The notes: generated from the sequence alone by a model not told the origin. Counted from the stretch's first letter, positions 46,327 through 61,346 are shown. The stretch is DNA of 64,000 nt from Candidatus Saccharibacteria bacterium CPR2 (GCA_021404905.1 QWHN01000005.1:16102-80101), one strand, 5' to 3'. A program made the numbers and translations.

Positions 46327-46342
46327 GAGAACAGTATAGCGT

Positions 46343-46444
46343 ACAGAAATTAGAAAACAGCAATTAGGAAACAGAAAATAGTATATTTTTAAAAACTAAT
46401 TCCTATTTTCTAATTGCCAATTCCTATTTCCCAATTGCTATCTC
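46343..46444. repeat. Heptamer-array palindromic element (copy A)
   Basis: Left arm acagaaa ttagaaa acagcaa ttaggaa acagaaa. AT-rich centre containing the 32-nt core (46373-46404). Right arm ctaattc ctatttt ctaattg ccaattc ctatttc ccaattg ctatctc. The last three units lie inside the 3' end of the pseudouridine synthase CDS. Confidence 0.8.
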
Positions 46445-47110
46445 TCTGTGCTCTCCGCTTTCCAGGCCATTTATCTTATATGGTCCGAATTGGATGCGAT
46501 GCAACTTAACAACCTCATATCCCAGGGCAGAAAAAGTTCTTCTAATTTGACGATTGCGGCCTTCGCGCATGTATACGAGAAATTTGGTGTTTTTGATTTT
46601 TTCGCTAAAATTTTTTGACGCTTTAAGTTTAAATCTGCTCAAACCATCTCCAATTTCCACACCATCTTCGATTTCATCTTTGTGTGTTGTGGACAGTGGT
46701 TTATCAAGCTCAACTTCATACACTTTTTCTTTTGCGAATTTTGGGTGTGTTAATTGGTACGCTAAATCTCCATCATCAGTAAGAAGTATCAAGCCGGTAG
46801 AATTTTTGTCGAGTCTTCCAACGGTTTTTAGTCTTTTATACTTATCTGGCAGAAGTTTATAGACTGTAGGAGTGTCTCCTTGGGTGTTTCTACTGCAAAC
46901 ATAACCTTCTGGCTTGTTGAACAATAAATATGTGTGTTTCTTTAGGGGTTTGACAGTTCCCCCGTCGACTTCTACTGGTTGATTAATATTTACTTGCGCC
47001 CCAAGTTTGACAACATTTCCATCAATAATAACCCTGCCTTTTTCAATCAGATTATCTGCTTCGCGTCTGGATATTCCTAGTGAATTTGCTAAAAATTTGT
47101 TTAATCTCAT
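46424..47110 (-). CDS. Pseudouridine synthase, RsuA/RluB family, with N-terminal S4 domain
   Basis: 228 aa. S4 domain MRLNKFLANSLGISRREADNLIEKGRV. Catalytic motif GRLDKNSTGLILLTDDG. Confidence 0.85.
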   Translation of the reverse strand: MRLNKFLANSLGISRREADNLIEKGRVIIDGNVVKLGAQVNINQPVEVDGGTVKPLKKHTYLLFNKPEGYVCSRNTQGDTPTVYKLLPDKYKRLKTVGRLDKNSTGLILLTDDGDLAYQLTHPKFAKEKVYEVELDKPLSTTHKDEIEDGVEIGDGLSRFKLKASKNFSEKIKNTKFLVYMREGRNRQIRRTFSALGYEVVKLHRIQFGPYKINGLESGEHREIAIGK

Positions 47111-47133
47111 TATCTGAAATAATACCAGACGGC

Positions 47134-48609
47134 TTAAAGAGCAATGTCTTCAGGTCGTACCTGATCGTTCTGTGTGGAATTGTTTGATTGAGCCGTATTT
47201 TCATCTGATTGATCAGAAACGGGAGAGCCAGGTGTAATAGTTTGACCCGGTGTCATTTGTTGCTGTCTCTCCTGGTAGCTGTCGCCGCCATCAGCCATAT
47301 ATGAATGTATTTGATTCTCAACCTCAGATTTTTCCTGAGCCGCAGGTTCGCTTAGACCGCCATCTATGGCTTGATGTGATTCGTCAGCTTGCTGTTGTTT
47401 TTCCAATTCTCTGCGAGCCAGTTCTTTAAGATCTGGTTTTTGAGTCGGGTCATTAATTGGTTGAATAACTTTCTTTTTTCGTGATGGTGAATCTGGAATG
47501 TCAAAATTCAACTCTGTTGAACTTCTATCCTCATCTTCATCATTAGTAGTATCCATACCATTTTGTGCTACATTGCTATCCGTATCTTCGACTTGAATTT
47601 GCAACCTTCCGGGCTGCTCAGTAGGAGTTATTACTGCAGAATCAGTTGTAGAGCCACTTTGAATATTCGCATCACCTTGACTGGCAGCGTTAATATTAGG
47701 CGCATCACTTGCTTTATTAACTTGTGTTGATTGAACGTCATTTGATGACGAGCTAGAAGTGACTGTATTTTGGTTTGGTTCCGGTCTTGGCGGAGGTGGT
47801 GGGGGCACATGTAGTCGCTCCCCCACTGGCTCCGTCGGAGCCTTTCTGACGGATACCGTTGCTCGTGCGGGGGGCGGGGTTATGTCAATCCCCGCCTCAG
47901 GTTTTGGGCTGGAGTACCCTCCTGGAGCAGTTTCATTTGTTGGGGGTTGTGGCTTTTGAGGAGTAGTTAACTGTGATTGTGAAGTTGGATCGACTTGGGG
48001 TTGAGCCGGCGGCTGAGTATTATCTACCTGAACTGTTTGAGTTGTATTTGCAATGTCAGGTTGAACTACACTCGCTGCTGGTACTGCTTGAGTTGTTTCA
48101 GTAGTAGCTTGCGAGGCAGGACCAGCAGGTGTAGTGCTTGGCTGTGAAGTTGCAACACTTGGGCTGGGCGTAGATACAGGAACTGTGGGTTGTTCTGCTG
48201 CTACTGGCTGAGGAACGGCCGCGGGTGTTTGAGCCGAATTGCTACCTTCAAGAACCTCATGGACTGTATTAACTACATCTTCTAAAGTGACCTGTGATTT
48301 TACTAAATATTTGTTTGCACCTAAATTCTCGCCGCGCTGTCTGTCTGATTCTTGGCTAAGGGCTGTCATCATAATAACTTTAGTGTCTTTGGTCTCTGGG
48401 GTGGTGCGTAATATATCCAAAACATCAAAGCCACTAATTTTAGGCATCATTACATCGAGAATTATTAGGTCTGGTTCTTCTTTAACAACTGATGCCAGTG
48501 CTTGTTCGCCGTCTGATACAGATACTATTTCGTAGCCTTCTGCCTGAAGTCGAGCTCCGTAAATTTCCCGCAGGTTTTCGTCGTCTTCAACCAGCATTAT
48601 TTTCGTCAT
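47134..48609 (-). CDS. Receiver-domain protein with a C-terminal low-complexity Pro/Thr/Gln/Ser-rich extension of about 370 aa
   Basis: 491 aa. Residues 1-120 form a REC domain (IMLVEDD, LIILDVMMPKISGFDVLD, MMTA...KYLVK). The remainder has no recognisable fold (for example PPPPPPRPEP and runs of T/S/Q/P/A/V). Confidence 0.8.
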   Translation of the reverse strand: MTKIMLVEDDENLREIYGARLQAEGYEIVSVSDGEQALASVVKEEPDLIILDVMMPKISGFDVLDILRTTPETKDTKVIMMTALSQESDRQRGENLGANKYLVKSQVTLEDVVNTVHEVLEGSNSAQTPAAVPQPVAAEQPTVPVSTPSPSVATSQPSTTPAGPASQATTETTQAVPAASVVQPDIANTTQTVQVDNTQPPAQPQVDPTSQSQLTTPQKPQPPTNETAPGGYSSPKPEAGIDITPPPARATVSVRKAPTEPVGERLHVPPPPPPRPEPNQNTVTSSSSSNDVQSTQVNKASDAPNINAASQGDANIQSGSTTDSAVITPTEQPGRLQIQVEDTDSNVAQNGMDTTNDEDEDRSSTELNFDIPDSPSRKKKVIQPINDPTQKPDLKELARRELEKQQQADESHQAIDGGLSEPAAQEKSEVENQIHSYMADGGDSYQERQQQMTPGQTITPGSPVSDQSDENTAQSNNSTQNDQVRPEDIAL

Positions 48610-48668
48610 AGTACCTCCATTCTATCGGGAAATATAATTTTTTACCATAACCTTATTTTTACTACATA

Positions 48669-50366
48669 TTACACGCTTTGTTCAATATCTGAAAGTGGGC
48701 TCATAGAGGCAGCTTCTCGTTTCATTAGGTCTTGAGCTTTTTGAGTGCTTAGTCTGGGCAGAGAAACATAAAACTTACTGCCCTTGCCCAATCTAGAGTC
48801 TACCCAGATTTTCCCACCAAAAAGCTCGACAATTTTACGACAGATAAATAGGCCAAGCCCCGTTCCGCCAATTTGTCTGGTTGCGGAGTTGTCAACTCTA
48901 TAGAACTTCTCAAAAAGATGCGGAATATCTTCTGCTGGGATTCCTGGCCCGGTATCTTCTACCGTAACAAGAACGTTTTGCTCATCTGCCCTCAAACCAA
49001 TAACTATCTTTCCTTCCTCGGTGTATTTAACGGCGTTATCAAACAGATTAGTTATGATTTCACGCAGGCGATCAGGGTCTACGTGCGCATAATAAACCGG
49101 CATGAGGGCTTGTTGGGAAGTAGCCATGTTATCATCGCCAAATTGATATTCAACTTTCAGCCCTTTCTTTTCGGCTGTGAACCGCACATCTTGGGTAACT
49201 TGTTCGAGGAAAGCACTTATGTCAGTAACCTTTGGATGGCTGATTAGTCGTCCGTCTTCTGATTTGGCCGCTGTCAACAGGTCCTGGAACAGTTTGCCAA
49301 GATGCTGAGTTGATGAATGAGCTTTTTCAAGATATTCTCTGGCTTTGGTATCAATATTCACGACATTTGGGTTCATAGCAAGGGAGAGATAACCTTCAAT
49401 CGCGGCTACTGGAGTACGCATTTCATGAGATGCGGTAGAAATAAACTCGGCTCTTTGTTGTTGCTCGGATTTTTCCTGGCTTATGTCTCGAAAAACAACT
49501 ATAACGGCGTTGGCTTCATTGTCAAAATTCTGGATTGGTGAAATTGTTATAGAAAGCGAAACAATTTTGTTTGAGCGCGAGTTTAGATTAAATTTATTGC
49601 TGGATACAGGTTGCTTCTGTTGAAACACTTCAATCAGAGGATCTACTTGAAGCGGTTTGTTTTTATCATCAACAAACTTCATTATCGACCGATAATCCAG
49701 CCCCAAAGCCTCCTCGACTTTCCAACCAGTTATTTCCTGGGCGGCTGGATTAAACAGTTTAATTTTATAGTCAGTGTCTACAACGATCACGCCGTCCGCC
49801 ATGGCGCTAATTAAAATATCGGCTTTGCTTTTTTCATGCGCCAAAGAACTCATCAAGCCTTCAACTGATCCTTTTTCTGTTTTCTTTTGACCCTGATTAC
49901 TCCAAATTATTAAACTGGCAATAAATGTAATCTGAACCATAATCACTCTGATAATGTTGTCTCTTAAATCTCCATGAGCGGTGAAAATACCAAGAACAAA
50001 TAGTAAATAATACGCATCCGTGCCAACTATTAAAGGGACTAATACTGCCCAACCGAACATTCCCGTTAGCATGATTATCAAATACCATAACCCTATATAG
50101 GGCGATCCTACGCCGCCAGTAGCATATATTTGCCAGGAAACCATGGAAAACAGAAGCGAGTAACTAATAATTGCGCCAACCCAGAATCTCAGGCGTACCG
50201 CATATTTGTAGAGAAAGAGGCCAAATATCGCGGTTATTAACCCCAAGATTGCCGTCCCCGGGGTAACACCAAAATTTAGTTGGTCCTGCAAGCCAGGGAA
50301 AACAAATTGCAGCAGTAAATATGATACAAAAAATACACTGCCCACCACTGTAGTAATGGTGTTCAA
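48669..50366 (-). CDS. Membrane sensor histidine kinase (multi-TM + PAS + HisKA + HATPase)
   Basis: 565 aa with TTG start. About 5-6 N-terminal TM helices, a PAS-like segment, H-box STASHEMRTPV, N-box LFDNAVKY, and G-boxes DTGPGI / GTGLGL. Confidence 0.85.
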   Translation of the reverse strand: MNTITTVVGSVFFVSYLLLQFVFPGLQDQLNFGVTPGTAILGLITAIFGLFLYKYAVRLRFWVGAIISYSLLFSMVSWQIYATGGVGSPYIGLWYLIIMLTGMFGWAVLVPLIVGTDAYYLLFVLGIFTAHGDLRDNIIRVIMVQITFIASLIIWSNQGQKKTEKGSVEGLMSSLAHEKSKADILISAMADGVIVVDTDYKIKLFNPAAQEITGWKVEEALGLDYRSIMKFVDDKNKPLQVDPLIEVFQQKQPVSSNKFNLNSRSNKIVSLSITISPIQNFDNEANAVIVVFRDISQEKSEQQQRAEFISTASHEMRTPVAAIEGYLSLAMNPNVVNIDTKAREYLEKAHSSTQHLGKLFQDLLTAAKSEDGRLISHPKVTDISAFLEQVTQDVRFTAEKKGLKVEYQFGDDNMATSQQALMPVYYAHVDPDRLREIITNLFDNAVKYTEEGKIVIGLRADEQNVLVTVEDTGPGIPAEDIPHLFEKFYRVDNSATRQIGGTGLGLFICRKIVELFGGKIWVDSRLGKGSKFYVSLPRLSTQKAQDLMKREAASMSPLSDIEQSV

Positions 50367-50509
50367 ACGGCTATACCACTTTGGAGATACTTCGAGAAAT
50401 AGCTTAATAGACTTAATCCGTTTCTTTTTTCAACCATTACCATTATGGCGCCATTATATTTGTTTTTCAATTTAATAAATGTCTGTTTCACGAAACGCGG
50501 GCATTCACG

Positions 50510-50584
50510 TGGTGACCCCTAGGAGAGTCGAACTCCTGTTTTCAGGATGAGAACCTGATGTCCTAACCACTAGACGAAGGGGCC
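50510..50584 (-). tRNA. tRNA-Glu (anticodon CTC), CCA encoded
   Basis: Manual cloverleaf: acceptor GGCCCCT/AGGGGTC, D arm GTCT-AGTGGTTA-GGAC, anticodon arm TCAGG-TTCTCAT-CCTGA, T arm AGGAG-TTCGACT-CTCCT, discriminator A + CCA. 75 nt. Confidence 0.9.
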
Positions 50585-51018: not shown

Positions 51019-51044
51019 GCTGGTATCAAGTATACAGGAAACGG

Positions 51045-51192
51045 GAAATAGCAAATAGCAATTGGGAAATAGAGATTGGAAACTAGAAACTAGCAATTAG
51101 AAAATAGAAATTAGGAATAAGTAGAAAGAGCGCATCGTTTTTCAAATCCTATTTTCCAGTTCCCAGTTCCCAATTCCTAATTTCTATTCTCT
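51045..51192. repeat. Heptamer-array palindromic element (copy C)
   Basis: Left arm of 12 phased units (caaatag caattgg gaaatag agattgg aaactag aaactag caattag aaaatag aaattag gaataag ...). A 15-nt centre. Right arm aaatcct attttcc agttccc agttccc aattcct aatttct attctct. Fills the HK-stop to RR-start spacer. Confidence 0.8.
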
Positions 51193-52717
51193 ACTTGCGG
51201 TACATCGCATGGTTTTTAATCCAGCCATGCGAGCTGCGGACTATACCCTTTTCTGGTTGTTCCAGTTTATTGGCTACCGAAGCAAACGTCGGTACTAAAA
51301 ATCCAAAAGTTGAGCCCTCCCCTTCCTTAGAACTCACATATATTTGGCCGCCATGCGCATCAATAATGGCTTTTGATAAATACAGCCCAAGACCAGTGCC
51401 GCCTACGGCTCCTTTGGTACGGTGAGACCGGTAAAATTTCTTGAATAAATTACCAATTACGGATGATGGAATACCAATGCCACGATCTTGAACAATTACC
51501 TCTACCTGGTCGCCTCGTTGTCTTAGCTCAACGACAATTTCGCCGCCTTCATAACTGTATTTGATCGCGTTGTCTACTAAATTATTTAGCACCTCGGTAA
51601 TTCCTACTTTGTCTATGGCTACGGTGGGCAGATTTTGCGGACTTTTTAAGATAATCTTACGATTTAGGGCAGTTGCTCTTAAGCCAATTTCGTCTACAGT
51701 TTCTTTGGTAGTTGAGATAATATCTTCTTCCTTAATAAAAAGCTTTAACTCGTTTTGGTCCACACGGGACACATTTAATATGTTGTTGACATAAGTAGCC
51801 AGTTGATTAGCCGAGAGGACTACCTTGGAAAGAAGCCCTTTTTGTTCATCATTAGCTACACTATTCAGCTCATCGCTAAGCACATCTAGATACCCGCGTA
51901 TCACTGTAATCGGACCTCTGAGCTCATGTGCTGCCAAAGCAACAAAGCTAAGCTGATTTTCATCTTCACTATATGAACCGGTTTTATCTGTGAATACCAA
52001 AACGACTTCTTGATTCAGACTGTCATTTTTACTGTAATGCGCTACTAAATCTATATAACGCACCTGATTTTTTGAGCTTAACTTTACACGGTTCCAAATG
52101 CGTTTGTCGTGCACCTTATTTTGTCTGGAAGATTCGAGCCAACTTTTATAATCACCTTCACCCTGAAAATCCAAATTCACTATTCTTTCAAAAGGCACCC
52201 CAATTGATTCGGATTGCTCGCTGCCGATAAATTCAAGAGCTTCTTTATTAGCAAAAGCCAGACTTTGGTTGTTATCAAGAATCATTACTGCAACTGGCAG
52301 TTTGTTAAGGATAGACTCAATATATCTGGCATTGCTATTACTTGTTTGCGATTCAGCTTCCTTGCTTTTGACAAGTTTATAAATATTATCAGTAAGTTTT
52401 TCTATTAATTCACGGCCAAGCAACGTGCCCTTGATTGTTAGTGTCTGCGCGCTTTCTTCGGGCGCCAGGATATTGGCTATAACTTTAGTCAGAACATCTA
52501 TTGGTTCGATGATAAAGGTTTGTAAAAAATAGACCAGGATTGAACCAACAAATGTTGAAACGCCAAAAGCTATGATTGAGGTGATTTCTATTGAAATGTC
52601 GAAATATATATTTAGTAATAACCACGTTAATGTCCCTGATGCAGCCACAATTCCGTACGACAAGAACATCACCCATGAGATGTGTGCTCTAAGTTGGCGA
52701 ATTAAATCTTTCTGCAT
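51191..52717 (-). CDS. Membrane sensor histidine kinase (2 TM + PAS-like + HisKA + HATPase)
   Basis: 508 aa. H-box LAAHELRGPIT, N-box LVDNAIKY, and G-boxes DRGIGI / GTGLGL. Confidence 0.85.
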   Translation of the reverse strand: MQKDLIRQLRAHISWVMFLSYGIVAASGTLTWLLLNIYFDISIEITSIIAFGVSTFVGSILVYFLQTFIIEPIDVLTKVIANILAPEESAQTLTIKGTLLGRELIEKLTDNIYKLVKSKEAESQTSNSNARYIESILNKLPVAVMILDNNQSLAFANKEALEFIGSEQSESIGVPFERIVNLDFQGEGDYKSWLESSRQNKVHDKRIWNRVKLSSKNQVRYIDLVAHYSKNDSLNQEVVLVFTDKTGSYSEDENQLSFVALAAHELRGPITVIRGYLDVLSDELNSVANDEQKGLLSKVVLSANQLATYVNNILNVSRVDQNELKLFIKEEDIISTTKETVDEIGLRATALNRKIILKSPQNLPTVAIDKVGITEVLNNLVDNAIKYSYEGGEIVVELRQRGDQVEVIVQDRGIGIPSSVIGNLFKKFYRSHRTKGAVGGTGLGLYLSKAIIDAHGGQIYVSSKEGEGSTFGFLVPTFASVANKLEQPEKGIVRSSHGWIKNHAMYRK

Positions 52718-53781
52718 TAGTTATATGTAACTGACTTCTCTGGCGGAAGTGCTACAACCCAGGCTTGACCGGCATTGAGAGATATCTCCGCGCCGGCAGC
52801 ATCTAAGAACTTATACTGTTCAAAAGCGCCGGGTTTTTGCCATGTGCCAGTGGTGAGAGTGCCGTCCTGAAAGATAAGTAATTCGCCTGAACCTGCTGTT
52901 GGCATCTTTAAATGTCCATCTGCCATAACACTTTGTGGGATCTTCATGACTATAACAACTTTAGGGTTTATTTGTTTGCCGGACTCTCTGTCCTTATGCG
53001 CATTGCCGGCCAAGCTGCGCAGATAACTGTTCGAAGCCTGGTCGTAAGTATAGCTTGATGCGTAATACTGGCTGGAGATATTAATCGAGATGTTCGAAGC
53101 GTTTGGCGCCGGTGAAGGCGTATCAGCTTTTCGTGTCCAAGGTGTAAATTTGCTTTCCTGAAAACCCAGTTCATTCATTAAAGCATCCAGGAGGTCGCTA
53201 GTCGTATACATATTGTGCGGTGCGTATCTGTCGCTGGCACGATAGAATGATCCGGCGTGAGAGAATTGGTCGAGATCTTTCATGCTGGCGCTACGAGCAT
53301 ACTGCAAAGCTTCCGGACTTCCACCTACGTGTGCAACGGCCGCGTCAAATGTTTTTCCCCACTCCAGAAAATATGGCCTTAATGATCTAACTGGCCCAAA
53401 CAACGCGGGTCTTGCTTCTTGGTAAAGGGCTAAATGGCGCGTGATTCCACCCTCGGCGATTGCTTCAAACACTACCCCGGCTTCTTGAAGGCCAGATTGC
53501 GGCCTGGCGTCAGGACTATTTTCGATTACAATCCCTTTAACGGGGCGTTTTGCTAAGTCGGGAGACACTTCAACTCCCGTCAGGGGAGATTTTTCCAGTT
53601 TTATAGTAGGCTCGCTAGTGCTGGTCGCATTTGGGTCTGTGCGGCTGACTTCTTTACTGTTTTTTAACCATATAGCGGTAATTAAAATACCCAAAAAAAC
53701 TACCAGGATGGTGCTCGATACTAACAAAACTTTTTTGTTTTTCTTGGCCCAGTCAAAAAAACGGGCTAAGCGTTTTTTCAT
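52717..53781 (-). CDS. DUF3048-family secreted/anchored protein (YerB-like)
   Basis: 354 aa. N-terminal TM, then VIENSPDARPQSGLQEAGVVFEAIAEGGITRHLALY, which resembles the DUF3048 signature. Assignment is from memory. Confidence 0.6.
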   Translation of the reverse strand: MKKRLARFFDWAKKNKKVLLVSSTILVVFLGILITAIWLKNSKEVSRTDPNATSTSEPTIKLEKSPLTGVEVSPDLAKRPVKGIVIENSPDARPQSGLQEAGVVFEAIAEGGITRHLALYQEARPALFGPVRSLRPYFLEWGKTFDAAVAHVGGSPEALQYARSASMKDLDQFSHAGSFYRASDRYAPHNMYTTSDLLDALMNELGFQESKFTPWTRKADTPSPAPNASNISINISSQYYASSYTYDQASNSYLRSLAGNAHKDRESGKQINPKVVIVMKIPQSVMADGHLKMPTAGSGELLIFQDGTLTTGTWQKPGAFEQYKFLDAAGAEISLNAGQAWVVALPPEKSVTYN

Positions 53782-53832: not shown

Positions 53833-54045
53833 ATAACTTTTAACTATTTCCCAATTCCTAGTTTTCATTTGCCATTTACCAATTACCAATCATTGTCTCA
53901 ATAAAGCATTTATCATTGATAAAAATATCTCATTAGTTAACTGACTAAATGAATGGCAACTGGTAAATGATAAGTGGTAAGTCTTTATACGAGCTTGATA
54001 GCTTTTAACTAATTCCTAGTTGCTGATTCCCAATTGCTAATCGCT
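53833..54045. repeat. Heptamer-array palindromic element (copy D, variant word set)
   Basis: Left arm ctatttc ccaattc ctagttt tcatttg ccattta ccaatta ccaatca. Right arm gaatggc aactggt aaatgat aagtggt. A 21-nt module gagcttgatagcttttaacta follows, then aattcct agttgct gattccc aattgct aatcgct, which lies inside the gltX 3' end. Confidence 0.75.
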
Positions 54046-55511
54046 ATATTCAGGCGCCTTATGGTCGTTTCTTTACCTAAAACGGCCAGGGTCTCAGCTA
54101 GAGGAGGGCTAAAGGGTGCCCAAGTGGTAGCGATTCGAACGAGGCTAAATAAAACACCCGGTTTTTGAGAAGTTTGTTGCAATAAATTATTTAAGCTATC
54201 AGTTAGACCCGCAATGCTAAAGTCACTTTGTTCCAAAGCGTCAATGGTTTGTTTCAACAGGGCTTTTATCTCGTCCATAGAAAATCGGCTAAGCTGTTTA
54301 TTATTTTTGATAAGTTCCAAATCTATGGGCTGATCCTCAAAAAAGAACTTAGTCAATTGGGGAAGTTCGTCAAAATGCTTTAGTCGTTCTTGAACCAGCT
54401 TTAAAACCTGGGTTTTATAGGCGTTGTCAAATTTGCCTGCTGCTTCCGGCCAAAACTTGGCACCGGTTTCTAATCCCTGATTTTTAATTGTCTCGAAAAG
54501 TTGCTCGATACTTTTAGAACGAATGTGGTGCCCGTTTAGCCAACTAAGTTTTTCCGGCTCGAACCTGGCGGGAGATTTTTGGATTCTCTCTATAGAAAAT
54601 GCATTTAAGATTTCATCAATGCTATAAACTTCCTGATTTGTGCCGTCATTCCAACCGAGTGATGACAGGAAATTAAACACGGCTTCCTTTAGGTAACCTT
54701 GGTCACGATATTCCAACACCGACATTGCCCCTTCGCGCTTTGATAACTTTTTCCCGCCGTTCTTCCCAAGTACTGGCGGTAGTGTGATAAATTTTGGCGG
54801 TTGCCAGCCAAGGGCGTCATAAACCGATAAAAATTTTGGCATTGAAGATATAAACTCCTCGCCTCTTATAACATGAGTGATTTTCATTTCGTAGTCGTCC
54901 ACAATGTGAGCGAAGTTGTAAGTCGGAAAACCGTCAGCTTTGATTAGGATAAAATCATCCAATGCCTCCGGGCCGGCAGAAAGCTTGCCCCGGACTTCAT
55001 CCTGCCATGAGTAAGGTTTAACCTCAGGGACTTTAAGGCGCAATGGTTTTGTCTCGTCCCATTCAATACTTTTATCTGAAAATTCAGGGCGATAATCCCT
55101 AAATAAAAAAGGCTTGTTGCTATTTTTTGATTGCCCCCGAAACTCTTCTAACTGTTCTTGGGTGTATGGATCAGGATAAGCATGCCCGGCTTCAAGTAAT
55201 TGTCTGGCATATTTTTTATATATGTCTAGTCTTTGAGATTGAAAATATGGGCTATTTTCACCGCCGACATCCGGACCTTCATGCCATTCAAGCCCAAGCC
55301 ACTTCAGCGACTCTTTAATTTGCTCAACCGCGCCTTTAACCTCGCGTTTTTTATCTGTGTCTTCGATTCTTAAAATAAAATCGCCATTATTTTGCTTGGC
55401 TATAATCCAGGCAAAGAGCGCTGTTCTAATCGCGCCGACATGAAGCATGCCGGTAGGACTGGGCGCAAAACGGGTTCGGACACTCATTACCAACATAGTA
55501 TCTTCTAACAT
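54009..55511 (-). CDS. gltX: Glutamate--tRNA ligase
   Basis: About 490-500 aa. HIGH-type motif PSPTGMLHVG and KMSKS-type KLSKR. The start may be the Met of MSVRTRFAPSP (55487). Confidence 0.9.
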   Translation of the reverse strand: MLEDTMLVMSVRTRFAPSPTGMLHVGAIRTALFAWIIAKQNNGDFILRIEDTDKKREVKGAVEQIKESLKWLGLEWHEGPDVGGENSPYFQSQRLDIYKKYARQLLEAGHAYPDPYTQEQLEEFRGQSKNSNKPFLFRDYRPEFSDKSIEWDETKPLRLKVPEVKPYSWQDEVRGKLSAGPEALDDFILIKADGFPTYNFAHIVDDYEMKITHVIRGEEFISSMPKFLSVYDALGWQPPKFITLPPVLGKNGGKKLSKREGAMSVLEYRDQGYLKEAVFNFLSSLGWNDGTNQEVYSIDEILNAFSIERIQKSPARFEPEKLSWLNGHHIRSKSIEQLFETIKNQGLETGAKFWPEAAGKFDNAYKTQVLKLVQERLKHFDELPQLTKFFFEDQPIDLELIKNNKQLSRFSMDEIKALLKQTIDALEQSDFSIAGLTDSLNNLLQQTSQKPGVLFSLVRIATTWAPFSPPLAETLAVLGKETTIRRLNIAISNWESATRN

Positions 55512-55556
55512 GAATTGCTATTCAAGTTAAATTTGATTACAATACTTGATCAGAGA

Positions 55557-56288
55557 ATGTCTATGCCTCCAAAAATTGTTTACCCTCAAAAAGATAATAA
55601 TACCGACCATCCAACCCCTAATGAAATATATGACAACGCGAATAGAAACAGTCCTCAAGATTATTCTGAGATTACTGAACCGGGTAAGATTACCAAATTT
55701 TTGACAAAATCTATTTTTGTGAAATTGTATTATTTCAATTTTTTTGGACTTTTGTTCTGGGTTTTATTATTAATCTTTACACTTATTCTTACAGTCATAA
55801 TTAATTCCACTCAAACTCTTACGGAAAATGCAATTAATGCAATTCATGGTTTGCTATGGGGAGGTCAATTTTTTTGGTTAGCTCTGGAGCTTTCATTAAT
55901 GCTATCCGGGGTATTAATATTTAAAAACAATATTAAATTATTACAATCAAATCGAAAATGTGTACCTAAAGTGGTTAAATTTGTTGGTGCGCTTTGGGGG
56001 CTTACACTTTTGGTCGGGATATTTATTACTGGGCATGTATTGTTCTCGAATACAGATTTTATTAATTCTGTATTAGCACTGGGTATCGTGTCTGTAGTAT
56101 TTTTTATGTTTTGGCTTTATGCCGTAAATGTGCTAATTAACCGCATACTTAAGCGAATAGACAGTCAGCGCCCTTTTAATTTAATAACAACAATGCTTAC
56201 ACTAATTTTTGAAACTTTAATAATATTTTTTGGTTATATAATTATTACCATCACCGCTACAATTGTGGATCCACCTGATTCAGGCTAA
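55557..56288 (+). CDS. Hypothetical polytopic membrane protein
   Basis: The ATG at 55557 gives MSMPPKIVYPQ. About 6 hydrophobic helices. No motif recognised. Confidence 0.5.
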   Translation: MSMPPKIVYPQKDNNTDHPTPNEIYDNANRNSPQDYSEITEPGKITKFLTKSIFVKLYYFNFFGLLFWVLLLIFTLILTVIINSTQTLTENAINAIHGLLWGGQFFWLALELSLMLSGVLIFKNNIKLLQSNRKCVPKVVKFVGALWGLTLLVGIFITGHVLFSNTDFINSVLALGIVSVVFFMFWLYAVNVLINRILKRIDSQRPFNLITTMLTLIFETLIIFFGYIIITITATIVDPPDSG

Positions 56289-56304
56289 AAAATCCAACAT
56301 TACT

Positions 56305-57150
56305 ATGAGTGCAATTTCAATCACATCGAGATATGCAAAAATCAATTCACTTGTAAAAATGACCCGACCGCAAAACATGCGATTCACAGTAGCCGTCTAT
56401 ATAGTAAGCGGAGCGGTTTTTGGTTTATCTACAATAGCTATAATCCTTGGTTCGTTAATTTATTTTCTGCTTTATGGTTTGGCCACCATTATTAATAACA
56501 TAAGAGATGTTGAAGTCGATAAGCTAAATAAAACGAACAATCCCTTAGCAAAAGGCAATGTAAGCATACAAGAGGTAAAAGTTCTTTTTTCAATTTACCT
56601 TTTGGGTTTAATTATCATCCAGTTACTTCTTCCACAACCTGAAACATTGATATTTGCGCTTACTTTACTGTTTTTTAGTTTAATATATTCTTGGAAAGTA
56701 ACAGATATTCAATCAAGGGGTTTGATTGCGACGATATTACTCTCGCTTATGTATTCAGGTTCTCCCGTATTATTAGCAGGTATATATTCTGGGTATTTTC
56801 CTCTATTTCAAGCATGTGTCTTGGGTCTTCTAACCACTGCCGGTCTACTCGCTAAGGATTATAAAGACATAAAAGGTGATAAGTTGCATGGCAAGCTTAC
56901 CCCATTGGTTCGATATGGTGAAAAAACAGTTAGAACAATTGCTTATACCGTAGGAATAATAGCTTTAATTTTTGTATTTTACTCAAATTCTATGAATTTA
57001 GCAGTATATATTACTTTATCCACTTTTTATTTAAGTAGTGCCTACTGGCTACATAAAAATAAAGCGCATAATAATCTAATTAAGATATTGCATCAGACAT
57101 CTGTGGTATTTTTGGTAGTTTTTTATCTTCAAGGTGAATTTTTAAAATAA
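56305..57150 (+). CDS. UbiA-family prenyltransferase
   Basis: The ATG at 56305 gives MSAISITSRY. Polytopic, with first Asp-rich motif NNIRDVEVD (NxxxDxxxD) and second KDYKDIKGD. Confidence 0.75.
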   Translation: MSAISITSRYAKINSLVKMTRPQNMRFTVAVYIVSGAVFGLSTIAIILGSLIYFLLYGLATIINNIRDVEVDKLNKTNNPLAKGNVSIQEVKVLFSIYLLGLIIIQLLLPQPETLIFALTLLFFSLIYSWKVTDIQSRGLIATILLSLMYSGSPVLLAGIYSGYFPLFQACVLGLLTTAGLLAKDYKDIKGDKLHGKLTPLVRYGEKTVRTIAYTVGIIALIFVFYSNSMNLAVYITLSTFYLSSAYWLHKNKAHNNLIKILHQTSVVFLVVFYLQGEFLK

Positions 57151-57157
57151 ACTAAGA

Positions 57158-58255
57158 TTATAGGCTGGCGGCGATTTTTACGATTTGCTCACTGTTTAAG
57201 CTTGAGTCTCCCTCTATCGTGTACCACACGCCACCATTCACCCATGTTGCGCTTGAACCGTTATAAACGTAAATTGTCAGCCCTCGTTCTTTATAGGTCT
57301 GGTAGAGCTGATGCTCTTTGGCTACAAAATTGTCAAATAAACTCCTTGAGTCCCAGCCGCTGGATTTTTGGATAATCGAATATTTGCGTTCATCTGTGTT
57401 TGTATTAAACCCGATTGTAATTTGCCCAGCGCTATAAGATATGGGTCCGCTAAAAGCAAATCCGGTAGGCGTATATCCGGGCATCTTGGCATTAAATCCC
57501 GCCCTGGAGGCGGCTACTCTCATGGATAAATTAGGGATATTCAGATAAGTTATATAACCCGCCAACAAAACTACGCTTGTAAAAGTAGCCAAACCTGTAA
57601 CCAACTTTGGCCGGGAGCGCAATTTTTTAAAAATTTTTGGCTGCTTTTTTGAAGTATTTTTTTGTGTTTTTGAACTAATACGAGCTGGCTTAGCTTTGCT
57701 CATTTGCTCTTTAATAAGCTCGTTTTTTAGTACTTTTGCTGGCTTGGATGTGGTGGCAGTGCTTTGTTGTTGCGGGGTAATATTCTGAACGGTTTGGCTG
57801 TGCTTTGCGAAACCAATTAGGGAGAGATCTTGGCCAAATTTTGAAATGGCATTACTCAGACTATATTTTTTAGCTCGTCTTTCTCTGAGTTTTGCTTCGT
57901 GTGAGTTGATCACCAAACCAGAATGTTTTTCGGGTTGGATGATTGATCTTGAAACACTCTTTGATTCTACGCGAGGATGCGCCTGGGGTTTTTTTAGAAT
58001 TTGTCTTTGCAGCGTCTCGGAACGTTTGGTTTTTTTATGAACTTTACTTGCAAGTGGTGTGGGGTGGCTTCTTTGTTTTGTTTTTACTGGTCCAGAGTTT
58101 TTAGGGCGCACAAAACCATCAATTGTTTTTTTATGTTGGTTATGTGATTGTTTTGCGTGCGTTTTGATATCTTGATTATTTACCAACTCTCCGGTGTTGG
58201 CATCATAAACCCGACCGTTGATAACGACTGTATTGTGTTTTTTTGAGCGATCCAT
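57158..58255 (-). CDS. Hypothetical bitopic protein: basic K/Q/S-rich cytoplasmic region, one TM, C-terminal DUF4367-like domain
   Basis: 365 aa. TM helix LVTGLATFTSVVLLAGYITYL. The C-terminal beta-rich domain assignment is tentative. Confidence 0.45.
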   Translation of the reverse strand: MDRSKKHNTVVINGRVYDANTGELVNNQDIKTHAKQSHNQHKKTIDGFVRPKNSGPVKTKQRSHPTPLASKVHKKTKRSETLQRQILKKPQAHPRVESKSVSRSIIQPEKHSGLVINSHEAKLRERRAKKYSLSNAISKFGQDLSLIGFAKHSQTVQNITPQQQSTATTSKPAKVLKNELIKEQMSKAKPARISSKTQKNTSKKQPKIFKKLRSRPKLVTGLATFTSVVLLAGYITYLNIPNLSMRVAASRAGFNAKMPGYTPTGFAFSGPISYSAGQITIGFNTNTDERKYSIIQKSSGWDSRSLFDNFVAKEHQLYQTYKERGLTIYVYNGSSATWVNGGVWYTIEGDSSLNSEQIVKIAASL

Positions 58256-58351
58256 AGACCTAACTTAACGCCCCCGTAAGATGCTTATGTGTATTTATCT
58301 TAGCAATTGTTTTGCTGGTTCACAACCTGTATTAATGGTTAAAAATTTAGT

Positions 58352-59362
58352 TTATAGCCCCAGCAAACTACGTTTATATTCATCCAGATGGCTCAAGGCG
58401 TAGTATGTTCCTTTGGCGTTGCAAAGCAAAGGGTCTTGGGCCATAAAGCACGGTGTGTTTAGTTTTCTGGACAAATATTCTTCAATGCCATTGAGCTGCG
58501 CCACTCCTCCGCTGAGTACAATACCTTGACCGACAATGTCGCTGACTACATCAGGCGGGGTTCTTTCAATCGCGTTGCGCACAGCAAGAATTATTCTGTC
58601 AAAGACGCCTTCAAGGTGTGGCCTTAAATCTCTACCTTTAACATCGACGCTTTTTGGCAACGAGTCAGACAAATTACGGCCGCGAACTGTCATTTTTTGG
58701 TCATCAAATTCATCGTGAACCGCGCCAATCTTTAGTTTGGTTTCTTCGGCTGTATTCAAACCTATATGCATATTATGGGTCCGTCGAAAATATCTGGTTA
58801 TTGCCTCGTCCATTGCTTTGCCGCCAACCCTCACAGCCTCTTTGGTGACTATTCCTCCTAAAGACAGGACTGCTATTTCAGTCGTACCACTGCCTATATC
58901 GACAATCATATGGCCCTTTGGCTCAATAACGGGAATAGATGCGCCTAAAGCTGCCGCTACCGGTGAATAGATTAGAAATACGTTTTGGATTCCTGCTTCA
59001 TGTCCAACGTCTAGAACAGCCCGCTGCTCCGTAGAAGTTGCACTAACAGAGACGGTGATCATGGCTTCAGGCTTCTGAATATGAAAGCGCCCAATAGCCT
59101 TTTGCACAAAATTTCGAAGCATTTGTTCGGCTGCGCCAAAATCCGCGATGACACCGTTTTGCAAAGGATAATATGCCTCAAGTTGCTCCGGTGTGCGTCC
59201 CAGCATGTCTATCGCGTCAAGCCCAACGGCAACAATTTTGTCATTCTCAGTATTTTTGGCCACAACGCTAGGTTCATCAACAATTATCCCTTTACGAGGT
59301 ATGTAAATTCGAGTTCTGGATGTTCCCAGATCTATACCAATTTTTTTACTGAAGATTGCCAT
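58352..59362 (-). CDS. mreB: Rod shape-determining actin homologue MreB
   Basis: 336 aa. IGIDLGTSRT, VDIGSGTTEIAV and LSGGVAQLNG actin-fold motifs. Confidence 0.9.
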   Translation of the reverse strand: MAIFSKKIGIDLGTSRTRIYIPRKGIIVDEPSVVAKNTENDKIVAVGLDAIDMLGRTPEQLEAYYPLQNGVIADFGAAEQMLRNFVQKAIGRFHIQKPEAMITVSVSATSTEQRAVLDVGHEAGIQNVFLIYSPVAAALGASIPVIEPKGHMIVDIGSGTTEIAVLSLGGIVTKEAVRVGGKAMDEAITRYFRRTHNMHIGLNTAEETKLKIGAVHDEFDDQKMTVRGRNLSDSLPKSVDVKGRDLRPHLEGVFDRIILAVRNAIERTPPDVVSDIVGQGIVLSGGVAQLNGIEEYLSRKLNTPCFMAQDPLLCNAKGTYYALSHLDEYKRSLLGL

Positions 59363-59402
59363 TTGTAATACCTTAGCACAGGTTAGCCATGAGGCACCAC
59401 AA

Positions 59403-59705
59403 GAATTGGGAAATGGGAACTAGCAATTGGGAATTAGGAACTAGAAACTGGAAATTAGAAAATAGTATATTTTTAAAAAACTAATTCCTAGTTTCTAACT
59501 CCTAATTCCTATTTTTAACTTTATGAACTTGATAACTTTTAACTAGATTCCAGATTCCAGATTCCAGATTCCAGATTCCAGCTTCTAGATTCTAGCTTCT
59601 ATTTCCCAATTCCCAATTTCTATTTCCTAATTGCTGTTTCCTAATTTCTATACTCTATACGTCATACTGCATACTTCATACTCTATTTCCTAATTCCCGT
59701 TTCAT
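59403..59705. repeat. Heptamer-array element (copy E): hairpin part plus a 23-unit one-sided array including (AGATTCC)x5
   Basis: Nine purine-arm units at 59403-59465 (gaattgg gaaatgg gaactag caattgg gaattag gaactag aaactgg aaattag aaaatag). Core at 59457-59489. Five pyrimidine-arm units at 59481-59515. Module gaacttgataacttttaacta at 59525-59545. 23 phased heptamers at 59545-59705. Confidence 0.85.
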
Positions 59706-61162
59706 TGTTTTTCAACAACAAGATTAACCCTTTGAATTATTGTTTCTGTTGCGCTTGCGGGAGGAGCGACTGTATATATATTTTCAAAATCGTGGTCAAA
59801 GAAAACATCAAACCTTGGGTCGATTGGCACAATCTCCACTAAATTTGCCCCGTCAAATTCAAAGATCAACAGCTTGTTTGATTGGTCTTGGAGCATCAAT
59901 CGGTGCCCATCCATCCACTCGGCAAGTACGTTTTCCGCTAAAGGACGGTCAACTGCGAATTGGTAAGTTTTGTCATACTCGATGTCATAAACCGTAAACT
60001 TAGACCCATTTTGCAAACTAACAAACTGAGAATTATTAGAAAATGATGCCATTTGCGGTTTCTCGCTCGAAATAGTTCTAAACGGCTTTGGCTTTTCGCC
60101 TTCCTTGGTATCAAATGGGTTTTTGTAGATATAAGTCATATTAGTTGGAGAGTCTGTGATCGCCAGATATTCGTCACCGTCATATTTTTCCATTCTCATA
60201 AAATATTTTTCATTAGGGGCAACATCTCTTATCTCCATGGTTTTACCGTCTTTTAGAATACTAGCCCGAATCGTACCACTGTCTTTGAGTTCATGAATCA
60301 ATAAAACGGCTTTGTCTCCATAAACTCTGTAATACAGAACATGCTCCATTAGGGAGCTGGATATGGTTTTTTTATCAAGGTCAATGAGCCTTAGAGATTT
60401 ATCAACGAGGGCATATAATTGATTATTCGAACCTCCCAGAAACTGGATGTTATCAAGGGGCAAGCCAAACTCACGGGAAATGTTGCGGCTTGTCTCGGGT
60501 TTGGTGCGATCAAATACGATAAATTCGTTAATATCCCCGTTTTTATGGTTTAGCAAAATAACTTTATTATCCTGTGCCCATTCGATAATTTTTAGGTCGC
60601 CCAGCTTGCCGTCTTTTTTAGTAAACACTTCTTCGGGCAAGACAACGTTTTTTATAGGTCTTTCGATTTTATCTACTTCAATTTGATCATAAATTGGTTT
60701 ATCGGAAGAATTACGCACCAAGAGCCAAAATTTATCTAAACTTTGGCTGGCATCATTTACTTTTGGATATGTAAATTGCGTGGCAGCAAGAATCTGCTCT
60801 GGGAATAACTTTGGATAGTACACCCACATCACTTCTTCACCCTTTAATTCGACATTTTTTGACCAGGAACGGTAACCATCTCGCTTTAATTCGAGTTTGT
60901 ATTCGCCGGCCGGCAGGGCCAGTTTCCCTGGGGTCGTGTCGTTCTCGGCTTTATCGTTAATAAAAATCTGCGCTGGTTTTGGTCCCGCATCAACAAGTAT
61001 TAATCCGTTTTGTATCAATGTGCCGGTATTCCTATCAATATCGTAGCCTTTAGCGGCAAACACGATAAAAATGGTTGCGATAGCTGCTAACGCACCGCCG
61101 AGCGCATATAATAGTAAACGAATGGTTGAGCGCACTCTTTCAGATTGAAAGTCTATAAACAT
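59702..61162 (-). CDS. PEGA-domain membrane-anchored protein
   Basis: 486 aa. N-terminal TM and a PEGA-type beta-sandwich (PKPAQIFINDKAENDTTPGKLALPAGEYKLELKRDGYRSWSKNVEL). The long C-terminal region is not assigned. Confidence 0.6.
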   Translation of the reverse strand: MFIDFQSERVRSTIRLLLYALGGALAAIATIFIVFAAKGYDIDRNTGTLIQNGLILVDAGPKPAQIFINDKAENDTTPGKLALPAGEYKLELKRDGYRSWSKNVELKGEEVMWVYYPKLFPEQILAATQFTYPKVNDASQSLDKFWLLVRNSSDKPIYDQIEVDKIERPIKNVVLPEEVFTKKDGKLGDLKIIEWAQDNKVILLNHKNGDINEFIVFDRTKPETSRNISREFGLPLDNIQFLGGSNNQLYALVDKSLRLIDLDKKTISSSLMEHVLYYRVYGDKAVLLIHELKDSGTIRASILKDGKTMEIRDVAPNEKYFMRMEKYDGDEYLAITDSPTNMTYIYKNPFDTKEGEKPKPFRTISSEKPQMASFSNNSQFVSLQNGSKFTVYDIEYDKTYQFAVDRPLAENVLAEWMDGHRLMLQDQSNKLLIFEFDGANLVEIVPIDPRFDVFFDHDFENIYTVAPPASATETIIQRVNLVVEKQ

Positions 61163-61207
61163 ATGAAAATAATAAAATTGTTACGCATATAGTATAGCTG
61201 ATAGATA

Positions 61208-61346
61208 CTGGGAAATGGTAATTAGCAATTAGCAATTAGGAACTAGGAATTAGTTTTTAAAAATATACTATTTTCTATTTCCTAATTGCTGTTTCCTAAT
61301 TTCTATACTCTATTTCCCAATTCCAAATTGCTAGTTCCTATTTCCC
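61208..61346. repeat. Heptamer-array palindromic element (copy F)
   Basis: Purine arm actggga aatggta attagca attagca attagga actagga. Core at 61245-61276 is the exact reverse complement of 46373-46404. Pyrimidine arm has 11 units (ctatttt ctatttc ctaattg ctgtttc ctaattt ctatact ctatttc ccaattc caaattg ctagttc ctatttc). Confidence 0.85.

Follow-up and report, generated by a model that had tools for sequence, protein, structure and literature searches.

The 64-kb window analysed here, meaning the whole stretch of 64,000 nucleotides from 'Candidatus Saccharibacteria bacterium CPR2', carries a lineage-specific family of mosaic intergenic repeats built on degenerate heptamers. This conclusion is well supported, as is the placement of the CPR2 repeats as the Saccharibacteria counterpart of the heptameric LSSRs of Xanthomonas, cyanobacteria, Beggiatoaceae and Bacteroidetes.

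The heptamer unit and its arrays

Tandem Repeats Finder was used together with a lag-identity scan (scan width 42 nt, lag-7 identity of at least 0.62), and the results were compared with 200 shuffles preserving local composition. Arrays with periods of 7, 14, 21 and 28 were found at 11262-11311, 46343-46440, 51046-51177, 53866-54038, 59403-59686 and 61220-61346, with nothing comparable elsewhere in the window, and the period-7 arrays contain 3-11 copies each, exceeding the length expected by chance. In the lag-7 scan 367 positions pass, every one of them within these six loci (shuffle mean 0.02). Lags 14, 21 and 28 give 244, 178 and 78 positions respectively, and the remaining lags from 2 to 29 give 0-3 each. 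The six heptamer loci of the original prediction are therefore real, as strong 7-nt periodicity is confined to them and is absent from the shuffles.

The consensus unit is V-A-A-H-T-R-G, with the complement C-Y-A-D-T-T-B in the facing arm. In a logo of 94 units, positions 2, 3, 5 and 7 are conserved at 87-100% and positions 1 and 4 are free; G is fixed only at position 7 and partial at positions 1 and 6. This strong position-specific conservation is explained neither by slippage nor by hairpin selection. A strict (VAAHTRG)x3 pattern has 10 matches in the window, none in shuffles, and none among loci of other genomes totalling 1.32 Mb. In the window the unit occupies six spacer loci; one more locus lies in 15 kb of flanking contigs, and a related strain has further copies of the family. 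Arrays span 3-15 units per arm, the elements measure 100-300 nt at 23-36% G+C, and minor heptamer families (RAGTATR, GGAATCT, NTGGTAA) are intermixed. The elements (E0 to E5) and their linkers (M4 to M7) are as follows:

E0, 11262-11322, plus strand: one-armed purine heptamer array, 7 units at 11262-11311, then linker M4 (TAGTTAAAAGTCAT, 11309-11322)
E0 spacer, 11364-11405, plus strand: second, distinct heptamer family (TTTGARA), upstream of pyrG
E1, 46343-46444: hairpin; purine arm 46343-46383, centre M5 (AATAGTATATTTTTAAAAA, 46377-46395), pyrimidine arm 46396-46444
E2, 51038-51198: hairpin; purine arm 51038-51122, unique centre 51123-51143, pyrimidine arm 51144-51198
E3, 53833-54047, minus strand: composite, beginning in gene sense with a purine array (54047-54008) and M4 (54011-53998)
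E3, inner hairpin, 53976-53866: TTACCAN/NTGGTAA heptamers around centre M6 (53916-53890)
E3, distal part: second purine array (53866-53844), then second M4 (53846-53833)
E4-left, 59403-59520: hairpin upstream of mreB; purine arm 59403-59466, M5 59461-59479, pyrimidine arm 59481-59520
E4-right, 59532-59705, minus strand: one-armed mosaic immediately after the stop of a PEGA gene (59702); in gene sense purine units, (RAGTATR)n (59686-59647), VAAHTRG units with M7 (59658-59617), near-perfect (GGAATCT)7 (59592-59545) and M4 (59545-59532)
E5, 61208-61346: hairpin between sortase-like and PEGA genes; purine arm 61208-61254, inverted M5 61254-61272, pyrimidine arm 61267-61346, which includes M7 (61272-61313)

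The elements had been described as a purine arm facing a pyrimidine arm. This architecture holds for four of them, each a purine array facing its own reverse complement, but E0 is a purine arm alone with no pyrimidine arm opposite it. E3 likewise departs from a purine/pyrimidine palindrome, as it is a composite in which two one-armed arrays flank a pyrimidine-first hairpin of a different heptamer family.

Hairpins at the ends of genes

The arms are 71-92% complementary, and RNA folding bears out the expected long hairpins, with energies of -33 to -49 kcal/mol (z -3 to -9) that are equalled by 0/200 shuffles; for the four purine arrays that face their reverse complement, z is -4 to -9. Folds of the sense and antisense strands show no consistent difference. 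Complementarity of the arms is 0.64-0.73 whichever 7-nt register is used, which equals the in-phase identity of ~0.69 predicted from the logo; pairing is thus a built-in consequence of inverted arrays. Covariation, proposed as a check on the fold, did not exceed that of shuffles among five homologous hairpins, which ranked 66/500 when scored by the percentage of cells paired and 140/500 when scored by covariation.

All six loci in the window lie between co-directional genes, as first described, and whichever strand is read, each element has stop codons in all three frames. The suggestion that the elements fill the gene-to-gene spacers stands for the six spacers that they occupy; it does not extend to every spacer, because these are only 6 of ~24 spacers of at least 50 bp. 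The neighbouring genes share no common function. In 5/6 cases the arrays run over the upstream stop or last codons, and the sixth begins 14 nt past the stop. For example, the E0 array covers the last 15 nt of an S41 peptidase gene (stop 11276), E1 extends over the 3'-terminal 21 nt of rsuA (stop 46424), and the first purine array of E3 codes for the final 12 codons and stop of gltX. E2 separates histidine kinase and response regulator genes, and the TAG stop of the kinase (51191-51193) is itself an array unit. At the distal end, 3/6 cases have a -10-like TATACT unit 6-27 nt before the next ATG. One of these motifs lies on the minus strand at 46333-46338, between E1, which ends 16 nt ahead of the der ATG (46326), and that ATG.

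The statement that the purine arm always comes first in the mRNA is only partly informative, since for palindromes of that polarity it is automatic on both strands. It tells something only about the four one-armed arrays, each of which runs in gene sense. The inner hairpin of E3 is pyrimidine-first.

Such arrays could be phased binding sites for a sequence-specific RNA- or DNA-acting protein that reads AA.TRG as a recognition code, for instance a (U/G)AG- or GGA-binding regulator, a nucleoid protein or a translation/termination factor. Across the 94 units, 5/7 positions are conserved and two are free, a pattern predicted by neither neutral decay nor hairpin selection, and the shared gene sense of the one-armed arrays points the same way. 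The words are also lineage-specific, with other lineages using their own, as would be expected of co-evolving protein-site pairs, and S1, Csp or CsrA-type binders have been suggested for the TAACTGA repeats (MacGregor 2015, PMC4679880). However, this proposal comes without a candidate protein, the hairpin elements would sequester half of the sites in the opposite arm, each transcript carries both orientations, and the adjoining genes have no function in common. Because the copies are homologous, conservation of the unit may equally reflect a small number of founder units. We consider a binding array quite unlikely, and the likening of the units to GGA-motif sponge RNAs found no support.

Several known classes of structured element were also considered. 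An intrinsic (Rho-independent) terminator is rejected, as the consensus scan placed no canonical terminator, with its short G+C-rich stem-loop and trailing U run, at any of the elements (9 hits in 18 kb versus 17.8 expected). CRISPR arrays, with 23-47-nt repeats and unique spacers, do not fit contiguous, spacerless 7-nt units. Among Rfam families, tRNAs alone reach the gathering score in the window; matches to WsnRNA46 (40.8 bits against a cut-off of 65.3) and plant miRNA precursors are sub-threshold, generic long-hairpin matches. G-quadruplexes, which need at least four G3 tracts, are rejected too, as only some units contain GGG and four regularly spaced G3 tracts are present in none of the arrays.

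Copying, strain variation and origin

Different loci contain closely similar sequence. E1 and E5 are 89.8% identical over 98 nt in inverted orientation, E1 and E4 are 91% identical over 58 nt, and E4 and E5 are 100% identical over 42 nt, which is the M7 segment (59617-59658 in E4). Sequence comparison thus indicates common descent of the element copies. Relative to their genes, E1 and E5 have opposite orientations, which speaks against a strand-specific role for the hairpin type. The linkers also recur: there are 4 copies of M4 (0.02 expected), each in gene sense, and 3 of M5 (0.03 expected), and M6 is found again at an unrelated locus of another strain. The organisation is therefore a BIME-like mosaic of heptamer arrays and short conserved linkers.

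Comparison with related loci shows where the elements change. In 5.4 kb aligned with L082, all 5 differences are confined to one 37-nt array of E3, where a ~150-nt module is present in one and absent from the other. Synteny breaks within E4 in L083 and L084, and L084 has a 148-bp heptamer hairpin in place of a two-gene cassette. Overall, strain rearrangements fall at three of the elements. The mreB hairpin, unlike in the window, is flanked by divergent genes in L083 and L084, and so has no upstream gene to terminate there. E2 is identical in length in 6 samples and shows no variation in unit number. Short-read contigs from more than 20 samples terminate within M5 or M7, the behaviour expected where a repeat exceeds the k-mer in length. 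A further Saccharibacterium (L080) and a Flavobacterium (L068) have heptamer hairpins built from other words.

Two neighbourhoods in these strains deserve mention. In L082 an rve-family IS, whose inverted repeats are unrelated, is inserted right beside E3, and in L083 a composite copy adjoins a tRNA gene.

It is very improbable, and already largely contradicted, that the arrays are ordinary functionless microsatellites that arose by independent polymerase slippage at each locus, with coincidental palindromy. Heptamers are the commonest class of long simple-sequence repeats in many bacteria, with slippage reportedly proposed as their source (Mrazek 2007), and the near-perfect (AGATTCC)7 at 59545-59592 does resemble recent slippage. 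Perfect single-unit arrays of the AANTAG type are also common in AT-rich viral contigs; yet 0/126 of those arrays have an inverted partner within 150 nt. Most CPR2 arrays are degenerate, with position-specific conservation, and homology between loci extends up to 98 nt and includes non-repeat linkers. The constancy of E2 across six samples further indicates that the arrays are not hypermutable microsatellites.

REP- or MITE-like dispersal, as first proposed, is borne out insofar as homologous copies (90-100% identical over 42-98 nt) occur at different loci in both orientations. The fuller version is that these are non-autonomous mobile elements (MITE-, REP/REPIN- or SDR-like) copied by a transposase or HUH/Y1 enzyme encoded elsewhere, which would recognise the heptamer arrays or linkers and copy hairpin units into new spacers. 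The conserved non-heptamer linkers, the differences in module presence between strains at 98-99.9% identity and the composite copy beside a tRNA gene would fit, as would the IS beside E3, a situation reported for REPs (Tobes & Pareja 2006). However, that IS carries unrelated inverted repeats, the ends of the elements are not fixed (arms of 3-15 units), and no target-site duplication is visible at three strain-level presence/absence sites, and MITEs are therefore rejected as a class. The REP-typical GTAG tag is avoided, with G at unit position 4 (before TAG/TGG) in 1/94 units, and a scan of ~50 ORFs of the window turned up no transposase, RAYT or reverse transcriptase. On balance we regard enzyme-driven mobility of this kind as unlikely.

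The most likely account, and one that we hold to be somewhat better than an even bet, is that these are mosaic repeats copied at the DNA level which serve as 3'-end punctuation hairpins. Whole modules would be copied from locus to locus in either orientation, an origin to which the homologous copies point, and the arrays may then be remodelled in place by slippage, template switching and recombination. Elements would survive where they are least harmful, namely at a stop codon preceding a co-directional gene. Once transcribed, the purine array could close the upstream ORF with UAG stops in all three frames, and the arms may fold into a long imperfect A/U-rich hairpin, able to pair in any 7-nt register. 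Such a hairpin could act as 3'-end punctuation by stopping translation, ending or protecting the transcript and insulating the next gene.

A more elaborate reading is that some Patescibacteria and other lineages possess dedicated cassettes, for gene punctuation and as recombination joints, that are read by a lineage-specific protein. In each of them an all-frame stop would be joined to a register-free hairpin ending or protecting the upstream transcript and to a -10 (TATACT) unit from which a leaderless downstream transcript would start, and the protein would read the AA.TRG code, recognising and propagating the cassettes. If true, these would be portable recombination joints for the exchange of gene cassettes between strains, although we judge this decidedly unlikely.

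Relation to known repeats

It had been suggested that nothing known explains the elements. This does not stand, as intergenic heptamer arrays have already been described, including convergent inverted pairs at stop codons (PMC4692102, PMC4679880). REPs and BIMEs of enterobacteria and pseudomonads are similar in being intergenic, palindromic, multi-copy mosaics of repeats and linkers that lie downstream of operon stop codons and are hit by IS insertions, and a role as mRNA-stabilising or terminating hairpins has been proposed for them. However, REPs are 20-40 bp long and G+C-rich, with a GTAG or CGTC tag and a RAYT transposase. CPR2 elements are longer, A/T-rich and 7-periodic inside, and are accordingly rejected as REP/BIME palindromes.

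Closer in unit length are the cyanobacterial STRRs, heptamers that reportedly have small dispersed repeats embedded in them. Their tandem arrays are likewise intergenic, occur in genomes of ~40% G+C and are combined with short conserved dispersed sequences, and they are abundant enough for strain fingerprinting; the CPR2 unit words differ, and so does the phylum, the host not being a cyanobacterium. In common with LSSRs and STRRs, CPR2 has tandem 7-nt units at many dispersed non-coding loci, here within a 64-kb window. TAACTGA repeats of Beggiatoaceae, cyanobacteria and Bacteroidetes share with CPR2 an intergenic heptamer with a stop-containing unit, a sporadic lineage-specific distribution, strain indels in 7-nt steps, contigs ending in repeats and a suggested role in rearrangement (MacGregor 2015, PMC4679880). 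They are mostly short direct arrays just upstream of starts, with a single indirect repeat in the Guaymas genome (PMC4679880), whereas those of CPR2 are long inverted arrays at stops.

The GGGAATC/(GGGANTN)n repeats of Xanthomonas and Nostoc, like the STRRs and the TAACTGA repeats, belong to the closest known kind. Xanthomonas has heterogeneous (GGGANTN)n arrays that are transcribed and include 70-75 convergent inverted pairs; they are situated between ORFs that are aligned, and on the coding strand they either overlap the stop or lie no more than 50 bp from it, and Nostoc has few inverted pairs (Rehm 2015, PMC4692102). CPR2 units differ in being A/T-rich, with GGG occurring occasionally at most, and hence lack the G-quadruplex property on which the definition of the Rehm 2015 class rests. 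The free positions are elsewhere in the unit, the arrays form mosaics with conserved non-repeat linkers, and the host belongs to the Patescibacteria/CPR. The Rehm 2015 repeats are found in regions of increased stability (PMC4692102), whereas three CPR2 elements coincide with strain rearrangements. Both groups consist of dispersed, non-coding, degenerate 7-nt units in which some positions are fixed and others free, use similar words (GGGAAT.) and vary in sequence and length among relatives; both are found in excess between aligned ORFs and are under-represented where ORFs diverge. As in the inverted pairs of Xanthomonas, the CPR2 elements have convergent arrays on opposite strands, forming an inverted repeat between aligned ORFs, with the coding strand carrying the purine array over the stop codon or no more than 50 bp away. 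The class of intergenic heptamer repeats is therefore already known, and what CPR2 adds is Saccharibacteria as a host.

Periodicity and anatomy of the elements

The original prediction of 7-bp periodicity at six loci is real and was well described. In sliding 42-nt windows, lag-7 identity reached at least 0.62 at 367 positions, 100% of them within the six loci, and lags between 2 and 29 other than multiples of 7 gave only 0–3 positions each. Composition is not the source of this signal, because 200 shuffles inside 60-nt blocks, which keep the local A+T richness, gave a mean of 0.02 such positions against the 367 observed. Tandem Repeats Finder returned period-7 arrays (with harmonics of 14, 21 and 28) at these loci, and no array of comparable size elsewhere in the window. 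The elements are listed here, with the array coordinates from Tandem Repeats Finder in brackets:

E0, 11262-11322 (array 11262-11311): purine arm only, at 11.3 kb
E1, 46343-46444 (array 46343-46440): purine array and complementary array, at 46.3 kb
E2, 51038-51198 (array 51046-51177): purine array and complementary array, at 51.1 kb
E3, 53833-54047 (array 53866-54038): composite, with a hairpin of another heptamer (TTACCAN / NTGGTAA) between two one-armed purine arrays in gene sense
E4-left, 59403-59520, and E4-right, 59532-59705 (joint array 59403-59686): on the left, at 59.40-59.52 kb, a purine array and complementary array; on the right a chain of families, namely RAGTATR units, VAAHTRG units and a near-perfect (GGAATCT)7
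E5, 61208-61346 (array 61220-61346): purine array and complementary array, at 61.2 kb

A logo built from 94 units from all arms, phased and turned to the purine-rich sense, gave the consensus V-A-A-H-T-R-G. Conservation is high at positions 2 (A, 96%), 3 (A, 87%), 5 (T, 91%) and 7 (G, 100%, a value partly due to the phasing procedure); position 6 is A (73%) or G (26%), and positions 1 and 4 are nearly free, with three bases each. Five fixed and two free positions over 94 units are predicted by none of the cheap explanations. An array of phased protein-binding sites is one reading of such units, although we regard it as distinctly unlikely.

A purine arm facing a pyrimidine arm had been proposed for every locus, and this holds for E1, E2, E4-left and E5, the exceptions being the one-armed E0 and the composite E3. 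In these four the arms lie 12–31 nt apart and are 71–92% complementary, with RNA folds of -33 to -49 kcal/mol (z of -3 to -9). Arms are also 64–73% complementary at every shift by multiples of 7, and a preferred register is seen only in E4-left (0.81) and the inner hairpin of E3. Since any two arrays drawn from the logo are expected to show in-phase identity of about 69%, which equals the complementarity found across registers, the palindrome is the outcome of an array facing an inverted array rather than of site-by-site pairing.

Two minor heptamer families also occur: TTTGARA at 11364-11405, before pyrG, and CATACTN, which reads RAGTATR on the opposite strand, at 59647-59686, after the PEGA gene. 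The latter also borders E1 and the elements of L083 and L084, two matching loci from related strains.

Placement between genes and tests of function

The proteins of the window are carried at NCBI as 'Candidatus Saccharibacteria bacterium CPR2', and the relatives of its GltX among 185,579 species genomes are Saccharibacteria MAGs with identities of at most 58%. A cyanobacterial origin, which the resemblance to STRRs and a G+C content of 40% had seemed to indicate, was rejected on these grounds. Gene content is of a housekeeping kind, including secA, the dcw cluster, topA, dprA, der, gltX, mreB, several two-component systems and a sortase. As originally proposed, all six elements lie between the stop and the start of co-directional genes, occupying six of the approximately 24 spacers that are 50 bp or longer, and the four divergent or convergent spacers of that size contain no element. 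In five of the six, the array runs into the upstream gene and covers its last codons or its stop (by 15, 21, ~8, 37 and 4 nt); it begins 14 nt past the upstream stop in the sixth, and the distance from array end to the next start is 16–51 nt, or 177 nt at E0. The predicted stop codons in all three frames are present in every element, in both senses.

A gene-sense TATACT precedes the ATG of der by 6 nt, that of a response regulator by 11 nt and that of the PEGA gene by 27 nt (window 46333, 51029 and 61191, minus strand), and a divergent PGI-like gene in L083 has one 7 nt ahead of it (L083:4262-4275). When a hexamer scan was read against the gene map, one other window gene (15854) had an upstream TATACT (15841, plus strand). 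This suggests that the distal unit may double as a -10 box for short-leader transcripts, and the spacing of 6–27 nt before starts would be compatible with CPR2 mRNAs that have a very short leader or none.

No match to the elements was found at threshold in Rfam. The sub-threshold matches, to plant miRNA precursors and to the Wolbachia sRNA WsnRNA46 (51046-51204 and 59413-59530; 40.8 and 33.2 bits against a cut-off of 65.3), were rejected as generic similarity between long hairpins. Promoter and terminator scans found neither a canonical intrinsic terminator nor a sigma-70 consensus at the elements, and no enrichment of either; if anything, the region has fewer terminator-like sites than expected. 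Covariation, a check that the original prediction had called for, gave no signal above shuffles: five homologous hairpins had 90.6% paired cells, against 89.1% with partners shuffled among sequences, and of 500 shuffled sets, 66 equalled or exceeded the observed pairing and 140 the observed covariation score. We thus see no evidence for the maintenance of individual pairs. A consistent strand asymmetry of folding was also rejected, as E1 and E2 fold better on the sense strand and E5 on the antisense strand, with no difference between the strands in E4.

Some features of the wider region were recorded alongside. At ~36-38 kb (window 36000-39400) the GC skew, positive until then, turns negative and the genes switch from the plus to the minus strand, which looks like a replication terminus; five of the six elements lie 8–25 kb to one side of this point. 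The convergent spacer here (36187-36867, 681 bp) holds no heptamer arrays and adjoins a gene for an FtsK/HerA/TrwB-like ATPase (36868-39342). An HSP20 gene some 7 kb to the right of the window is preceded by a CIRCE-like operator, TTGGCACTC-N9-GAGTGCTAA (L237:250-300, L238:250-480), which in one strain carries a 184-nt insertion with duplicated operator halves on both sides.

Copying between loci and strain variation

The arrays are joined by conserved non-heptamer linkers. M4 (TAGTTAAAAGNNAT) has four occurrences where 0.02 would be expected, each directly after a purine array and in gene sense, and M5 (AATAGTATATTTTTAAAAA), the centre of E1, E4-left and E5, has three where 0.03 would be expected. 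The E3 inner hairpin is centred on M6, which is found again in another strain at an unrelated locus adjoining a tRNA gene. By pairwise BLAST, E1 and E5 are 89.8% identical over 98 nt in inverted orientation, E4 and E5 100% over 42 nt (module M7, 59617-59658 and 61272-61313), E1 and E4 91% over 58 nt, and E3 and its copy in L083 85% over 62 nt. These values are far above the 69% background, and the elements are therefore copies of one another; the inverted homology of E1 and E5 means that the hairpin type fits either orientation between co-directional genes.

Strain contigs were gathered from public assemblies via exact-protein look-ups. Short-read contigs from more than 20 samples stop inside M5 or M7, with breaks 76 nt upstream of der, 123 nt upstream of mreB and on both sides of the PEGA gene (108 nt before it and 56–78 nt after it), as is expected of repeats longer than the assembly k-mer. 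A practical effect is that the elements fragment CPR2 short-read assemblies in every sample examined. Samples in which the organism is present include SRR8954568, SRR12262943, SRR25316602 and SRR34646259.

The elements also mark points of strain-level rearrangement. The matching locus L082 is 99.9% identical to the window, and all five mismatches in 5,477 nt are confined to a 37-nt array at the gltX end; it is without the inner module of E3 (~150 nt) and carries an rve-family IS with ~20-nt inverted ends directly beside E3 (L082:5478-6505, equivalent to window ~53822). L083 and L084 are 97.5–98.8% identical to the window and keep the mreB hairpin, here between divergent genes, with synteny lost inside E4. 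In L084 (~98% identical) a two-gene cassette (window 55487-57159) is missing and a 148-bp heptamer hairpin stands instead (L084:3351-3498). The cassette is on the opposite strand and encodes a UbiA-family prenyltransferase and a 241-aa protein with no Pfam match; the flanking gene ends at this site differ too. Over 4.6 kb, eight of the 11 differences between L082 and the window fall within 30 nt of the DUF3048 gene (53446-53476), which looks like a small recombination patch.

A MITE- or REPIN-like element mobilised in trans is an unlikely reading of the family, as the roughly 50 window ORFs scanned yielded no transposase, RAYT or reverse transcriptase, and no target-site duplication was seen at the L082, L083 and L084 junctions. 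Plain microsatellites are highly improbable. Six samples share the same length of E2 and differ by one substitution, at a free unit position, so that a hypervariable unit number is not seen at E2; the elements are therefore not hypermutable microsatellites. One more small array was found in 15 kb of flanking contigs, giving, together with the window, about one element per 11 kb.

We lean towards regarding the elements as DNA-level, module-copied repeats remodelled by recombination and slippage, tolerated at 3' ends and probably used there as punctuation. Modules would spread by copying at the DNA level, and recombination and slippage would then reshape the copied arrays. The punctuation would consist of all-frame stops and a register-free hairpin, and the putative -10 unit for the next gene may be part of the same cassette.

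Occurrence elsewhere and comparison with known repeats

A scan of related genomes had been called for; copies are present in related strains, but 1.32 Mb of gltX-neighbourhood loci from 80 other genomes, mostly Saccharibacteria, contain no member of the VAAHTRG family. Another Saccharibacteria MAG (L080) has heptamer families of its own (TCCTAAA/TTTAGGA, AATTTTC and ATTGGGA), including a pyrimidine-first hairpin in two copies, identical over ~70 nt and 890 bp apart (17840-17943, 18727-18830); further heptamer sites lie at L080:1474-1534 and 6381-6434. A Flavobacterium MAG (L068) has TAATTAG ... CTAATCA arrays and others, and its intergenic inverted arrays at 18315-18410, 18758-18869 and 20753-20874 (e.g. 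GACTAGTAATTAGTAATTAGTAAATAG ... CTAATCACTAATCACTAATTAC) have the architecture seen in CPR2. Chitinophagaceae loci hold single heptamer arrays. Two sets of database matches were set aside: viral contigs with five AANTAG units (more than 120 matches) are perfect single-unit microsatellites, none with an inverted partner, and are not the same thing; all nine metagenome matches to the 22-nt M5 centre GAAAATAGTATATTTTTAAAAA are due to chance, in AT-rich contigs without heptamer context.

To our knowledge, intergenic heptamer arrays were noted in cyanobacteria over 30 years ago and since then in Xanthomonas, Beggiatoaceae and Bacteroidetes, with no function or generating mechanism assigned. The CPR2 mosaic resembles the small dispersed repeats set within heptamer arrays that Elhai is said to have described in Nostoc in 2008. 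It is also like the BIMEs of E. coli in being a mosaic of repeats and linkers, but the CPR2 elements lack the size, composition and tag that define REPs (20–40 bp, G+C-rich, GTAG), and a RAYT, the other defining feature, was not found among about 50 window ORFs. In the account given by MacGregor, heptamers outnumber other long simple-sequence repeats in many bacteria, and polymerase slippage was proposed as their origin (Mrazek et al., 2007, via MacGregor, PMC4679880). TAACTGA arrays occur in Beggiatoaceae, cyanobacteria and Bacteroidetes, with 7-nt-step indels, contigs ending in repeats and a possible part in rearrangement (MacGregor, 2015; PMC4679880); these are mostly upstream of starts, whereas the CPR2 arrays are at stops.

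The existence of this repeat class overturns the earlier view that nothing known explains the elements. Xanthomonas has 183–186 arrays of GGGAATC or heterogeneous (GGGANTN)n, in convergent inverted pairs in 70–75 cases, which are over-represented between aligned ORFs and seldom lie between divergent ORFs, with the G-rich array on the coding strand and overlapping the stop codon or at most 50 bp away (Rehm et al., 2015; PMC4692102). Most are transcribed, their length and sequence differ among species, and their function was not identified (Rehm et al., 2015; PMC4692102). The G-quadruplex property emphasised for Xanthomonas is absent from the CPR2 elements, but the words are similar (GGGAAT.) and the grammar is the same: inverted arrays lie between co-directional genes, with the coding-strand purine arm at the stop codon. 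The heptamer-array phenomenon thereby extends to reduced CPR genomes, which contain little non-coding DNA and for which such DNA is presumably a burden, and a ~1-Mb episymbiotic Saccharibacterium offers a small system in which to seek a binding or copying factor. Our literature search found no published account of such repeats in Saccharibacteria or Patescibacteria, and the CPR2 family is a new, lineage-specific case of the intergenic heptamer-repeat class, with a clear mosaic organisation of copied modules.
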